Below, piece after piece: positions 1 through 50,650 of a stretch of DNA of 64,000 nucleotides. Positions within the stretch are counted from its first letter, which is position 1, and each line of letters begins with the position of its first letter. The position numbers and the translations under genes were made by a program. Origin of the DNA: Atractiella rhizophila (taxonomy: Eukaryota); the NCBI GenBank assembly GCA_021432655.1, contig MU271245.1, positions 8,229-72,228 of the forward strand, given 5' to 3'. The notes under the pieces are model-generated. The model was not told the DNA's origin. It ran no database searches and saw only the letters and a program-made list of their open reading frames with translations.

Positions 1-649
1 CGTAGTGGAAGCTTAGGATTAGGTTAGAGACTATATTGCTTTCTTCGCTTTCTGCTCCGTGGACGGCAAAGCTGATTCTTACGCCTCCTCGGTTTCCGAT
101 TTCTCCCTCCGCCTCCACCAAACAAGCCTCGTCATAGCTGCCACCCGGTTCCTCATCCGTCGCCGTAGAGGCGGTAGCCATTTCCCCGACCTCTCCCTCA
201 AAGGAAGTAACCGTCCCCTCGTCCTAGGCCTCAGAGGCGAGATCCCTTCCCACGACCTCTCCCCTCACTGGCGAGAACCCTTCCCTCGAAGTCGACAACC
301 TCGCCGGTGCCCGCTGCGACAGTTTAGACCGCCAGTTAACGAACGTCTACGGTGAAGCCGCCCGGAGTTCTAGCGACCAGTTCAAAGCTCTAGCCCTAAC
401 CTACGTCCGCGGTTGCAACGACCACCACAACAACCCTAACCTTTGTGTCGTCAGCCTCCTCACCAGTTAGACCGCCGCCTCTCGTCACCGTTCTAGAAAC
501 TCGGTCACCCACAGCCTAACTTCCGCGAGCTTCCTGATCCTCCTGACCGTCGGCTGAATCCTCTCCCTCACCCTCCAGACCATGCGGAACAAAGAAAAAA
601 ACCACAAAGGTAAAACGTTCGAAGACACATCTACGACTCCCGCCTGTGC
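1..649. other. Mirror-image segment (reversed, not complemented)
   Basis: The plain complement is codon-like and has a GTACGC donor at 581 followed by a pyrimidine tract. Reversing 1-649 gives a seamless in-frame join at 650. Confidence 0.92.
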
Positions 650-1129
650 AGGAGAGGTTGCACCTTCTTTCCTGCCGCCACCAAATACGCCAGATACTCC
701 TTTGCCCAGGTAGCCCACTCCATCTCCGACTCCACTCCCTATACCCCTCACTCCGCTCTCAAGATTCGATCCAATGCCTCCCAGCAATCCGCCAGCAGCT
801 TTCTTGGGAGGTTCTTCCTTCCCCTTCTCTTGAGGTGAGAAATGGGGAGATGGAGCACGTGGAGGTTTGGGATTTTCGTCCGTGAGGGAGGACGGAGTAG
901 GATTCTTTGGACCTAGATCAGGAGCGCTAAGTTCCCCTTTGAACTTTCCGACGTCGTCCCTGGGAGGGATTGAACGCGGTCCTGCGTGGTCGTCCAGCAA
1001 GGCAGAAGGCGGCGCGCTCCGCTTCTGACTGTTGTCTGCCAGCGGAAGGGGTTCGCGAGATTTGATTGGGAGAGGCTCTTTGGGCTTTTTGGTGGTGAGG
1101 TCGGTGAGCGGTTTCGTGAGGAATGACAT
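1..1129 (-). CDS. Hypothetical protein: Pro/Lys-rich disordered N-terminus followed by Gly-rich 11-mer repeats; 3' part lies in the mirrored segment and runs off the window
   Basis: ORF from ATG 1129 reads normally to 650 (..GGRKEGATSP). The complement of 1-580 read left to right continues it in frame (ASPSNPNPISDITKEAKDEA..GVGSGISAIGKGAGEGVSFIGRGAG..), with one extra base at about 261-264. Confidence 0.8.
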
Positions 1130-2110
1130 GTTCGTTCGATGTTGATCGTTATCGTTATTAGGTCGTGCTGTTGTGCGTGATATTAGGGGTGCGACTAGGC
1201 GATAAGAGCTTTATAGCAGGAAAGAGCTGAAGATGAGTGGGAGGAAGAGTGACAACGGTGTGATGTAGGATCCATGATGACGACATCACGTCACCACCTT
1301 CAGAATTCAGAATGGTCAGAATGGGAATTCAGATGGCGCATTTCAGTTCTCTATTACCGTGACGCGACAATATTGCCGTTCGTTCTGAACCTGGCTGGAC
1401 AGACGTTGCAGGTCAGGTTGCAGGTATCAAGTCTTTCCTACCCTTGAGAAGGAGTAAATTAGAACACGAACACCGAACATTGCCTATTTCGGACGACTGA
1501 AATTGAACTTGAACTGTTCTCGACCGAAGGGAAGTCAGGGCTAACTTGAAAGCCATTCCACTTCGTGGGACTGTGATACGTTTGAGGTGGAGTTGTGCAG
1601 CGCCAGGGTCAATAGTCGAGGTAACGCCTTTCATTTATTGAGAATTGGCTGTCGAACTTGGAACGTGACACGTACTGAACTTGAACGTTGTACCGCTTGA
1701 AGCTTTGAACACTGAAGCTGAAGGGACACCCCTTCGTGCCCTCTATATTCATTTTACCCTCTCGATTCATTCTGGAGCGAATAGTTTTCTCGTTCGCTCA
1801 TACACGCGGAGTTGTTGTAGGACAATGCCTGTGATAGGATTTCATGATCTCAATGTGCTCATCCATGGAATCCTTCTTTAGGCTGCAAAACGGTGATCAT
1901 AATACAGATATCATGTCAGCTTCTTTCTATATATTAGCCTTCCACACCATTTTACCTACGGTGCCAGATATATGACATCATATGAACACTCCTGACTTGT
2001 TTTGCAGGTAGAGAGCCATTCCAATATCCAGCTCTCAAATTTCCGTCAGCTTTCTTCATCCAACTCACCAGCGATTTTTGATTACATTCACCAATTCCGG
2101 GGGTTGCGAA

Positions 2111-3373
2111 ATGGCTCAAAATCTGCCCCCAGAGGTTGTTGCTCACATCCTTTCGGAGCATGAGCGACAAATCGATGTTTCCTGGTCCCTCATGTCTGAC
2201 CTCTCGTTGATCATCTTGCCTGGTATCTGAGGATGATATAGTGCACGAAATTGGACTCACGAAGTTCGACGGGCTTTCTTTCGCGATGTGACTCTGCACA
2301 CACAAAGCACAAGCACCGCGGATGAGCCTTCCGTCAAGGCGTTCAAGCGTGCCCTCAAATCACAGGCGTTTTTGTGGTTAAAGGGGATGGTACAATCCCT
2401 CATACTCATCTGTTGCAGCTCTTTCCCGAATGAGGAAAAGGGATCAATGTGGGAGCAGATGAGGACAAGTATTTCCAAGTTTTGGACTGAAACGACGGAC
2501 AGAGACTTGATCTCGCTCGAGGACTATGCGAGGAAACTGCCAACACTCAGAAACGTTTCAGTTTTCCGCTACTCAGCCGCACCATGTTTTACGACAGAGC
2601 ACGTTCTCCTGCCATTTTGCGGACTGTCGCTCGATTCTTTTTCGATCGATGACAACACTTTCTTGCCTTTTTTCCCGGGATGTATCCCTCTTTTCAACAG
2701 CCTTACTCTGAAAAACTTTAGCATTAAAATGCGAGGACCGTTTGATTTCCAGACTTGGAACGTGAAGGAAAGGCTTCAGCTTTCTCCTCTTCAAACTCTC
2801 AGTTTCAATTACAATTACAAGAGGTGTCGTCAACACTTCTCCCATGATTTCAAGAACCTTTTGACCTGCACACCTTCTATCCAAAAATTGTGCGTCGGCT
2901 ATTTTTCGTTCAAGACACTTCCAACACTCGACGACGTACCTGTCATTCTAGGCCTCAAAGAACTTTCCCTTTGGAGCTTCAGCTGTCCAGAAGCGGTTCT
3001 CAACGAGCTCATCTCCTCTTTCAAAGTTTTGGAATATCTCACTTTAAGCAGAGTGCAGTGGACCGCAAGCCTGTTTTCTCACTTGCCACATTCTTTACGC
3101 TCTCTCAGCTTATCGATTCCAAGTACTTCATATGTGACACCAATAGAGATTCAAGATGCAATGCTTGAAAGGGCAGCAGGCACATGGGCACACGTACCTC
3201 TCCTTGCACACTTCACGTGTGAGGCGTACCCCCGAGTTATGCCGCTGGACCTATGGCAGGATTTGGTGTCCTTCGGAGGCCTTTTATGGGACGACGGAAG
3301 CTGTGCAAATTTGGAAACGAAGTTGAAAGATAGCAGAAAGGAGTGTAGTTTCAAGTTTCGTTGCGAAACCTAG
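2111..3373 (+). CDS. F-box protein with a probable LRR/RNI-like C-terminal region
   Basis: ATG 2111 gives MAQNLPPEVVAHIL (F-box signature). A 57-nt intron 2185-2241 gives ..VSCARNWTHEVRRAFFRDVTL and joins ORF 2288-3373, which has LxxLxL repeats (LQTLSF, IQKLCV, LKELSL, LEYLTL, LRSLSL). Confidence 0.75.
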
Positions 3374-19518: not shown

Positions 19519-20541
19519 TCATTCTTCAAACCGATTCATCAATGGATTCCTTCCGCCTAAGTTAGTAGGATCATCTTAAAAATGACCAGTGAGCAGACGT
19601 ACTCTAATACCCTAGTCCCAAAGTAAGCCGTAACATGACTCCAAGGCTTCAACTGTTTCTCCATAGCGAGAGCATCGTATAACTTCCTGCTCCACCCTTC
19701 CCTCGGCCAAGCTCTCACGATCTCTTCGACAGTCTGGATGTGCAACAGATTGCCGTATTCCGCTAGACCCACGTTGTCTGTCACCGTTCCCAGCTGGATG
19801 AGCTGCCCATAGACTACAATCTGCACGAAGCGCTCAACTTAGTACTATTGAGAGTGGGTGGAAGGAACCATACACTCCCAGGTCCAAATTCCGTATGTCG
19901 ACAGATTGTTTCCGCGACCAAATCAGCCACATCAAGAGTTGCTCCATGTTCAAGCAACCAGTCCCGAGCGAGAAAAGCGCTAAAGTATTCGAAGCTCATT
20001 CTAGTCCTGTCCCTCCGCATCATTATCCAGCTACAAAGAGCTAGGGAAGAAGGACGGACGCTTTGACGTTTGACCGTGTACAACCGAGGTCGTGGAAGAG
20101 GCAGGAGAGGTAAAAGGTCTCTGGATCCCACCTCCATTCGGGGAATTGGATCTCTGCAATCGCTGCAGCTGCGCTCACGATACAAATTANNNNNNNNNNN
20201 NNNNNNNNNNNNNNNNNNNNNNCTGCGATCGCTGCAGCTGCGCACGCAATACGGGTCAGCGGTTAACAAAGAGGCTAGTAGGGCACGAACCAAGATAAAA
20301 TGACCTTTAGGAGTGATTGTAAACTTCGACAGGCAGCTGAGCCTTCAAGTATTCTTCTGCGCGTTTGACCAGCGATGAGGGAGCGAAGGCGGAGGCGTAT
20401 TTTGAAGCCAGATGGTTGTATGTGAGAGGTGCCGGATAGGGTGTTGCTGGAGACAGGGAAGAGAGGGGAAGAGGGACGGTTTGACACATTCTTATTGCTC
20501 CTTATTTTTTCGGGTTGATATCCAAATCGCTCTACAGTCAT
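19519..20541 (-). CDS. Cyanamide hydratase-like HD-domain protein (DDI2/3 family); 5' part disrupted, spans an N gap
   Basis: VYNHS*RSFYL, QFPEWRWDPETFYLSCLFHDLG, TRMSFEY, VAETICRH, GQLIQLGTVTDNVG, WPREGW, KPWSHVT. In-frame TAA at 20307-20309. Confidence 0.8.
20190..20222. other. Assembly gap (33 N)
   Basis: Run of N. Confidence 1.
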
Positions 20542-26173: not shown

Positions 26174-26613
26174 CCGCTTACCGGTGAAGATCGTCCCAAC
26201 TCGGTGAACCCCCACCTCCACGGTCTGACCATGGAGGTAGCAAGACGTAGTGTATAAATATGGGACTGTTAGTGTCGATACTGCAAGAACTCACTCCTCT
26301 CAAGATGTTGTCTCCAGCGGCGCTCCTATTGGCACTTTCCTCCCTTCATGCTGTTTTAGGGATCCCCTTCTCGACTCCGTCGAATGCGAAAAAAAAACCG
26401 CTTACCGGTGAAGATCGTCCCAACTCGGTGAACCCCCACCTCCACGGTCTGACCATGGAGGTAGCAAGACGTAGTGTATAAATATGGGACTGCTAGTGTC
26501 GATACTGCAAGAACTCACTCCTCTCAAGATGTTGTCTTCAGCAGCGCTCCTAATAGCACTTTCCTCCCTTCATGCTGTTTTAGGGATCCCCTTCTCAACT
26601 CCGTCGAATGCGA
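26174..26613 (+). repeat. Direct tandem duplication (period 224 nt) of the GH79 promoter and signal-peptide region, joined by an A9 run
   Basis: Copies at 26174-26389 and 26398-26613, with about 6 substitutions. Confidence 0.95.
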
Positions 26614-48625: not shown

Positions 48626-50650
48626 CTACAAATCAGACTTTCGTTTCTCGTCCAGGTCGTCAATATTCTCATCTTCGGACCTCTTCTTTTCTTCCCCGTC
48701 CTCCAACCTGAACGGGTCTTCCTTTAAGACGTGATCCTTTCTCAGGCCAGTCCTGGGGTCGATATTCCTCCTCCTGTACTTGTCGACGCTCATGCCGACA
48801 CCATAGAAGAACGTGAGAACAAATCCGGTAAAGGCGACCCAATACGACTTTTGAGTGTAGGTCGCATCAGCAAGTACACCCTGCATGCACAATTCTCAGA
48901 TTTTGGTTCTTCCGCGTTAAAGATTCTCCAAACCTGTAATGGAGCAAAGAGTGCTCCTCCACCAACGCCAGCAACGACGAAAGACCCTCCCACTTTGGTA
49001 AGTCTCCCAAGACGCGAGATAGCGAGAGCATAAACTATGAATCTGATTAGAAACATAACAAGACATTCGGGGGACTCACTTGTCGTCCAACAGATCGATT
49101 CAAAGTAGAACAGCCTTGTGCAAAGATTTCTTGAGCTGGCGCCAGGAGAGATCACAAAAACTTACAAAAAGGTGCAAGCAACTATTCCATTACCAGTTGC
49201 CTGAGTTACTCCAATCGTGAAGCAACAGCAAGCCTATTGAAGCCTTAGCACTGCCTTATATCCAACCAACCTCAGGAGACTCACCAGAGCGTAGGCAGTT
49301 AGAGCATGGGCGGGATCGACGTAATACAGCAATCCCGTGCCCATAAACCTTCCAAGAGCGAAAACCATTTGACAGTAAGAGTAATAGAGGGAGGCCTTGT
49401 CTGGCGCATAGGCGATACTAGGGGTATCTGCGAACAAGTTGACGGCGAAGGAAGCGACCGCCACCTGAGAGCCGACGTAGCTGAACTGAGCGAGTGCGCC
49501 GAAGATCGTGTGCTTTTGTTTATGTATCGGTTTGACGTCCTCTTTTCGGAGAGTTAGAAGGAGAGGTCAGAAGAGTGAACGCGCAAAGCTTGCCTTGGTT
49601 GGCGAGAGTATCCAGCAGGTTACGTTCGTCAATTTCGGGAAGCTGATACATTTCCGTCAGATTGAAACGAAACGGATGTTTAAACGGGAAACACACAGTT
49701 GCGAAGTAAAAGAGCACAAGCAGCAGGATTCCAAAGCATCCCACACCTAAGTAGACCCATTGGACGTTACCCAGATCTGTGCTATTCTTTCCTTTATAGA
49801 TTTCTCGCGAAGCAATGAGAGGACCAGCTAGAATCTCAAGTCAACGAGAACTCAAGTGGGAGCTGAAAGAGGACCAAAGGCTCCAATACCNNNNNNNNNN
49901 NNNNNNNNNNNNNNNNNNNNNNNNNNNNNNNNNNNNNNNNNNNNNNNNNNNNNNNNNNNNNNNNNNNNNNNNNNNNNNNNNNNNNNNNNNNNNNNNNNNN
50001 NNNNNNNNNNNNNNNNNNNNNNNNNNNNNNNNNNNNNNNNNNNNNNNNNNNNNNNNNNNNNNNNNNNNNNNNNNNNNNNNNNNNNNNNNNNNNNNNNNNN
50101 NNNNNNNNNNNNNNNNNNNNNNNNNNNNNNNNNNNNNNNNNNNNNNNNNNNNNNNNNNNNNNNNNNNNNNNNNNNNNNNNNNNNNNNNNNNNNNNNNNNN
50201 NNNNNNNNNNNNNNNNNNNNNNNNNNNNNNNNNNNNNNNNNNNNNNNNNNNNNNATCACTCACCGGCCCATGGTGCCCAAAGGAAGTACGCCCCAAAATA
50301 TGCCACTTGCATAAAAGTGGATTGTGTTTTGGATATTCCAAAAACCGATTGGAAGTGCTGTTTCGAGATTTATGAGAAGGAGATCTAAAAAAAAATGGGA
50401 CAAGAGAATCGGTCATACCTTGTTCAGAGAGTCAAGCAAACCATATGCAAATCCCCAAGCAAAGAAGAGGGATGACATTAAGCCATATCTGAATTACTCC
50501 CTCCTTACACATCTATTGGAAAGATAGAAGACAGGCAACTCACGCATATATGAACTGAAACCTCGTCAGATCTTGTGGCCGTACCTCCTTCTTCTCCACC
50601 ACCTCAACACCCTTTGGGCTCACTTGCTGCTTCAGGTTATGAAACGGCAT
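48626..50650 (-). CDS. MFS sugar transporter, L-fucose/glucose permease (FucP-like); interrupted by an N gap
   Basis: SLFFAWGFAYGLLDSLNKHFQ..QVAYFGAYF, AQFSYVGSQVAVASF, FALGRFMG, FESICWTT, GVGGGALFAP. Confidence 0.9.
49891..50254. other. Assembly gap (364 N)
   Basis: Run of N. Confidence 1.

Follow-up and report, generated by a model that had tools for sequence, protein, structure and literature searches.

The first 640 bases of the DNA analyzed here (the window, a stretch of 64,000 nucleotides from Atractiella rhizophila) are, we conclude with high confidence, true genomic sequence that was reversed without being complemented, through an error in the deposited assembly that almost certainly sits at the 5' end of a scaffold. 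The mirrored block is an artefact and not a real feature of the organism; Atractiella rhizophila does not carry mirror DNA. The real DNA would read backwards from base 640 to base 1 and resume at base 641. The window is eukaryotic, fungal-looking DNA, and the error falls within a minus-strand gene that starts at an ATG at 1129. The two parts that meet at the junction are as follows:

1 to 640, no strand assigned: block reversed without complementation (from the contig loose ends, the Markov score, and the absence of coverage of 1-616 in deposited order)
641 to 1129, minus strand: the gene's first 163 codons, genuine and correctly oriented, MSFLTKPL...GATSPAQA (from translation, and from the contigs of runs X1, X2, and X4 beginning at 640/641)

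Direct evidence on the junction comes from read-derived contigs. We aligned the Logan contigs of four public runs (referred to here as X1, X2, X4, and X5) to window positions 1-1300, and found the gene to be present in three of the four, namely X1, X2, and X4. Four contigs (one from X1, one from X2, and two from X4) reach the junction; all of them align from 640/641 rightwards and continue to the left as loose ends:

X1, record 1, 142 nt: alignment ends at 640, with 109 loose letters leftwards
X2, record 9, 431 nt: alignment ends at 641, with 209 loose letters leftwards
X4, records 17 and 18: alignment ends at 641, with 55 loose letters leftwards

The loose ends of X1, X2, and X4 match nothing in the deposited stretch as written. 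When they are instead compared with the plain reverse of the start of the window, using 30 letters per end, the X1 end agrees with positions 31..2 at 30/30 letters, the X2 end with positions 30..1 at 28/30 letters, and the X4 end with positions 30..1 at 27/30 letters. Not one of the four junction-reaching contigs in the four runs spans 640/641 as deposited; all four enter the reversed version, and according to the contigs of X1, X2, and X4, reversing the block restores continuity with its flank. A first-pass annotation of this stretch, made from the letters of the sequence, had proposed the mirror image and had looked to reads across the deposited junction, and to the match of reads with the reversed sequence, for a verdict; on both counts the contigs side with it. 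The comparison of 30 letters per end provides a direct contig check of bases 1-31 and of the junction, and the mirroring of the block beyond base 31 rests on the coding, repeat, and composition evidence considered below.

The same contigs fix the extent of the block. Because those of X1, X2, and X4 carry positions 641-649 in the deposited orientation, the block comprises bases 1-640, for which 2-639 is an equally valid description, since C stands at base 1 as well as at base 640. The interval of 1-649 given in the first-pass annotation is thus right in that the sequence is mirrored, as the loose ends attest, and wrong in its limits: the junction that it placed at 649/650 is 9 bases away from the one that the contigs place at 640/641, its equivalent block of 4-646 has to be corrected to 2-639, and its join of GATSP to ASPSN gives way to a join of ...GATSPAQA to ASPSNPN..., with three codons more. 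Both joins are in frame, by chance. An attempt to locate the boundary by composition was set aside as imprecise, with best values at 680-760 against the 640/641 of the contigs. At its left end, the contig sequence has base 1 itself adjoining 641, so the block starts exactly at window base 1. We infer from this that the window probably starts where the scaffold starts; were it otherwise, the odds of a block starting at window base 1 would be about 1 in 64,000 by our estimate.

Depth over bins 1-616 is zero in all four runs, which proves nothing when taken alone, because Logan contigs can be filtered; it is the loose ends that constitute positive evidence. Similarly, the share of sampled words of 1-1300 that could be found is at most 0.39, in the best of the 21 runs listed, a value that is compatible with half of the stretch being missing from all runs and that is by itself no evidence.

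The runs stand at different distances from the sequenced strain. X1 is at least 99% alike in 11/13 aligned contigs and has both alleles at position 673, and thus stems from the sequenced strain or one very close to it; X2 and X4 differ from the window and come from other strains or species, more distant than X1. One might use the divergence of X2 and X4 to argue that the sequenced strain is structurally different to the left of 641, due to an insertion or rearrangement, and that the loose ends reflect that strain difference. We consider this extremely unlikely, since a strain difference would not yield loose ends identical to the window's first 31 bases read backwards, and since X1, despite its near identity, has the same loose end.

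The contigs also provide some observations on the sequence to the right of the junction. At position 673, where the window has T, the major contigs have C (depth 1655/2122 in X1, 232/232 in X2, and 35/35 in X4); X1 also has T here, which makes this an allelic site near the junction. One X1 contig of low depth (256 nt, depth 27) aligns to 1079-1133 with 3 differences, beyond which, immediately upstream of the ATG at 1129, its other 201 letters diverge; it may come from a second allele or a paralogue, or reflect a spliced leader. In X5, a soil metatranscriptome, a 255-nt contig is identical to 1038-1292, which includes the 5' end of the gene and sequence upstream of it. This places the organism, or its RNA, in the soil library, which does not imply transcription, and as X5 covers 1038-1292 only, it gives no information on the junction.

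Over the block as a whole, the direction-sensitive statistics, the coding signal, and an internal repeat prefer the reversed reading. In the deposited order, the minus-strand gene reads MSFLTKPL...GGGRKEGATSPAQA down to base 641, and its frame below 641 then gives VVDVSSNVLPLWFFSLFRMVWRV... and a stop at 485; open stretches in the real frames of 1-640 do not exceed 110 codons. Read from left to right, the plain complement of the block has open stretches of 166 codons (frame 0) and 128 codons (frame 1), and its frame 0 starts ASPSNPNPISDITKEAKDEAPAVSTKNAEEPKAKEGGGGGLFGAVSTVGQGVGSGISAIGKGAGEG... and joins the gene in frame at 641. It had been noted at first pass that neither real strand continues the gene sensibly, which we can confirm for approximately the first 640 bases, and that the plain complement read left to right gives sense and an in-frame join, which holds as well. 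The features of the block in this reading, together with an open reading frame called from the deposited order, are as follows:

1 to 264, complement frame 0: 88 codons, ASPSNPNPISD...ALGKGAGEG, an in-frame continuation of the gene after 641
261 to 265, frame 0 passing into frame 1: one base apparently too many in a GGGG-A run (complement letters)
266 to 580, complement frame 1: 105 codons, VTALGKGASAVGAATGD...LGEGVGGL, part of the 128-codon open frame
581 to 631: candidate 51-nt intron, GTACGC...T-rich...GTGTAG (complement letters), or coding read-through, as read from the sequence
23 to 355, plus strand: spurious ORF of 110 codons from stop to stop, wholly within the mirrored block

Beyond the frame change, complement frame 1 carries on as ...VTALGKGASAVGAATGDAVKSGGQLLADATSAGLKIAG...LGEGVGGL and then arrives at GTACGC at 581. 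The change of frame at 261-265 is needed for a sense reading and was absent from the first-pass annotation; the repeat pattern in which ...ALGKGAGEG is followed by VTALGKGAS... continues only across this shift. One surplus homopolymer base would be the simplest reading of it, and the change hints that the source of the block was perhaps less accurate than that of the remaining scaffold. The approximately 190 sense codons previously counted hold up in amount (88+105) and do not hold up as a single frame, because of the change at 261-265, and of the phase-0 GTACGC donor previously described, the motif is indeed present at 581-586, with phase 0 applying in frame 1 only. In the real DNA, the minus-strand gene from 1129 would run approximately 193 codons past 641. 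Its 3' end, as far as it can be read from the letters, would take one of two forms: either a 51-nt intron at 581-631, followed by 9 exon bases (632-640) up to the scaffold end, or a read-through of VRLVSFFGVSILQASV, a hydrophobic tail, ending with a TAG stop at 629-631. The ORF at 23/59-355 on the plus strand is spurious because the block is mirrored, and the earlier dismissal of ORF 59-355, as well as of that part of ORF 485-1129 (minus strand) that lies below 641, is upheld.

An internal repeat links the two sides of the junction. Residues 3-89 of mirror frame 0 (nt 7-267) align with genuine residues 74-157 (91 columns, 37% identity, E 9e-12), whereas none of the 11 remaining frames, real or mirror, does better than an E of 0.002; because the low-complexity filter and the composition correction were both off in this search, the contrast in E between frames counts for more than the absolute E. 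For the codons at 266-580, the repeat matches are weak (genuine residues 99-154, E 7e-4 and 0.001). The translated protein is Pro/Lys-rich and then becomes a Gly/Ala-rich repeat with internal duplication, and would contain a tandem duplication that spans the junction, made up of a P-rich linker followed by G-x-G-x-G repeats. Taken at the level of its predicted translation, the real gene encodes a lineage-restricted Gly/Ala-rich repeat protein of at least approximately 356 codons, which the mirroring has hidden. The length of the open frames was rejected as a test of mirroring because it is weak, with mirror-frame ORFs of at least 166 codons occurring in 4/95 other 640-nt tiles.

For a direction-sensitive measure, we trained a Markov model on 641-64000, on both strands, with the scored tile held out. 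The forward-minus-reversed log-likelihood of 1-640 is -27.7, -30.4, and -28.5 for k = 3, 4, and 5, respectively. The 195 tiles that begin at 641 or later average +28.6, +30.7, and +33.2, which corresponds to z values of -4.4, -4.35, and -3.5 for the block. The tile 1-640 is the lowest of 197 tiles at every Markov order; the likelihood test picked the mirrored block out of all of them without external data. Among 320-nt tiles, 321-640 scores -29.6 (the others have a mean of 15.3, sd 9.7, and a minimum of -6.9), and 1-320 scores -0.8, with a z of about -1.7 that is ambiguous on Markov alone. A codon-usage log-odds score, trained on 59 long ORFs, takes values of 13.2, 2.6, 4.1, 8.9, and 8.2 for the mirror frames over 1-500, and of 2.0, 1.2, -2.2, -3.9, and -2.6 for the real frames; the score thus favors the mirror frames over 1-500, and it flips to the real frames from 601.

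By the forward-versus-reversed test, no other tile of the 64-kb window looks mirrored: slightly negative scores occur in 9/194 other 320-nt tiles, the minimum of -6.9 standing against the -29.6 of 321-640. Two N gaps, at 20190-20222 (33 N) and 49891-50254 (364 N), identify the window as scaffolded draft sequence; the flanks of these gaps score 9.6 to 22.2 and the right end of the window scores 23.2, with no sign of mirroring. The region at 25.9-26.6 kb has a low forward-versus-reversed score but no mirror coding signal. Within it, at 26174-26613, lies a tandem direct repeat with two 216-nt copies of 97% identity placed 224 nt apart. Each copy has a TATAAATA-like box together with the first part of a signal-peptide-like ORF (MLSPAALLLALSS...), and the arrangement resembles a promoter and first exon that were recently duplicated in tandem. 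Closer to the junction, the neighboring plus-strand gene at 2237-3373 codes for an F-box-associated protein of the LRR type (Pfam PF24758, E 3.5e-8), with an F-box-like MAQNLPPEVVAHILSE start upstream of it at about 2111.

The mirrored letters have also left their mark on a public protein record. KAH8926612.1 (P0002), listed by NCBI as a "hypothetical protein" of Atractiella rhizophila, has 253 aa and lies on a 125,754-base contig. It is 100% identical to the genuine sequence over residues 1-160, and its exons fall exactly on window positions 489-1129, 405-435, and 224-313, bordered by GT/AG. The portions of it that fall within the block are as follows:

224 to 640, minus strand: spurious part of P0002, residues 164-253, by exact mapping
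489 to 640, minus strand: tail of P0002 exon 1, from mirrored letters
405 to 435, minus strand: P0002 exon 2, from mirrored letters
224 to 313, minus strand: P0002 exon 3 and stop, from mirrored letters

Because residues 164-253 were spliced from the block as deposited, they are spurious, and 90/253 residues of the public record are thereby a casualty of the mirroring. The annotation pipeline was given the mirrored letters and spliced a meaningless C-terminus from them, which now stands in a public protein record. Moreover, since P0002 was spliced from mirrored letters, the mirror was in the deposited assembly before annotation, and since it was already in the annotated assembly, it was not introduced when the window was cut out.

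This last point bears on the idea that the mirror was made during preparation of the 64-kb window, as a decoy or by a slip, and is absent from the public record. That idea could appeal to the start of the block at base 1, to its length (640 is exactly 1% of 64,000), and to the fact that reversed, uncomplemented sequence is a common negative control, which the literature found uses deliberately as a decoy. We nevertheless judge it very unlikely, as the splicing of P0002 from mirrored 224-313, 405-435, and 489-640 needs a deposited scaffold that was itself mirrored.

Database searches place P0002 by itself. In an exhaustive search of 1.84 billion cluster representatives, and in searches among 5.8 billion clusters, the sole match to the genuine 160 residues was P0002; the same collections yielded no relative of the P0002 tail (VVDVSSNVLPLWFFSLFRMVWRV...), and no orthologue against which to check the mirror translation. 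A search for longer proteins with the genuine residues scored 0 of 2002 candidates, a search for close relatives matched 1/150 candidates, which was P0002 itself, and the 90% cluster of P0002 has 1 member. Pfam gave nothing in P0001 or P0002.

It could be maintained that nothing is mirrored at all: that 1-640 is ordinary 3' sequence, P0002 is correct, and the complement ORF arose by chance in G+C-rich DNA. Long mirror-frame ORFs do occur by chance, in the 4/95 tiles mentioned above, and a gene predictor did find exons with GT/AG borders in the block. Chance of this kind would still have to supply contig letters that match the reversed block at 30/30, a repeat at E 9e-12 in the mirror frame only, and a Markov score for 1-640 that is the lowest of 197 tiles, along with a P0002 tail that has no relative in the collections searched; we find this exceedingly improbable. 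The opposite view, in which the deposited letters are correct because the organism has a genuine mirror-order copy, is next to impossible. Its sole support is that the letters stand in the public record. No known process, as a matter of established knowledge, reverses sequence without complementing it, and we know of no event of DNA replication or recombination that does so; the contigs of three runs, the near-identical X1 among them, run on in un-mirrored order; 1-616 as deposited is uncovered in four runs; and the gene is sensible only after un-mirroring. Our reading remains that of an assembly error.

As to how the error arose, the early suggestion of a contig-extension or data-handling artefact is supported by the contigs and by the splicing of P0002, with the particular software step being conjecture. 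Software appears to be the most economical cause of the mirrored block, and the likeliest culprit would be a step of leftward scaffold end-extension or gap closing, in which new bases were perhaps appended in the order of their discovery and never turned back. Alternatively, a call to reverse() in place of reverse-complement may have left the piece the wrong way round. The homopolymer frame change within the block would fit an origin of this piece in lower-accuracy sequence. It is possible, although we lean against it, that the mirrored end is one case of a systematic fault that also hit other scaffold ends of this assembly and of sibling assemblies made with the same pipeline. In that event, public protein databases would have been seeded with hidden chimeric termini, and other terminal gene models would be hit; a forward-versus-reversed Markov test could find such termini at scale. 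A scaffold end that is wrong in this manner escapes BLAST, read mappers, and ORF finders, because an uncomplemented reverse is never tried. The value of the present case is as a data-quality finding and perhaps as a pointer to a systematic fault, and it has no biological meaning.

Among known phenomena, a biological inversion likewise leaves a block whose order disagrees with that of its flank, and gives the reverse complement. We rejected an inversion here on two grounds: the reverse-complement frame that would continue the gene reads VVDVSSNVLPLWFF... to a stop at 485, and the contigs show the plain reverse and not the reverse complement. To our knowledge, the only natural mirror symmetry in DNA is that of mirror repeats, the homopurine-homopyrimidine tracts of H-DNA, which are short and of low complexity and have both arms side by side. 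Window 1-640, in contrast, consists of 640 bases of complex coding sequence with a G+C of 0.56, and a blastn search of 641-64000 found no forward copy of the reversed block (3 matches of at most 17 nt, all with E 0.40). A natural H-DNA mirror repeat was thus rejected as well, the tract being complex and 641-64000 holding no forward arm.

Closer parallels come from genome informatics. Contig-end misassemblies in draft genomes have in common with the present case a terminal block that is contradicted by reads, and a terminal gene model that is corrupted by it. Ordinary orientation errors, however, are reverse complements, whereas window 1-640 is reversed only, and for this reason alignment tools and six-frame views cannot recognise the error. 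Among the papers listed by phrase searches of the literature, we found no assembly artefact consisting of reversal without complement; only deliberate decoys came up. Reversed, uncomplemented sequence is reported as a deliberate decoy or negative control, for example, in Dfam (PMC3531169) and in the RRE preprint (10.64898/2026.04.14.718546). Such decoys share with the block the same string operation, in which composition is kept and homology is destroyed. They are, however, made deliberately and kept apart from real data, whereas window 1-640 stands within a deposited scaffold and has been annotated as real.
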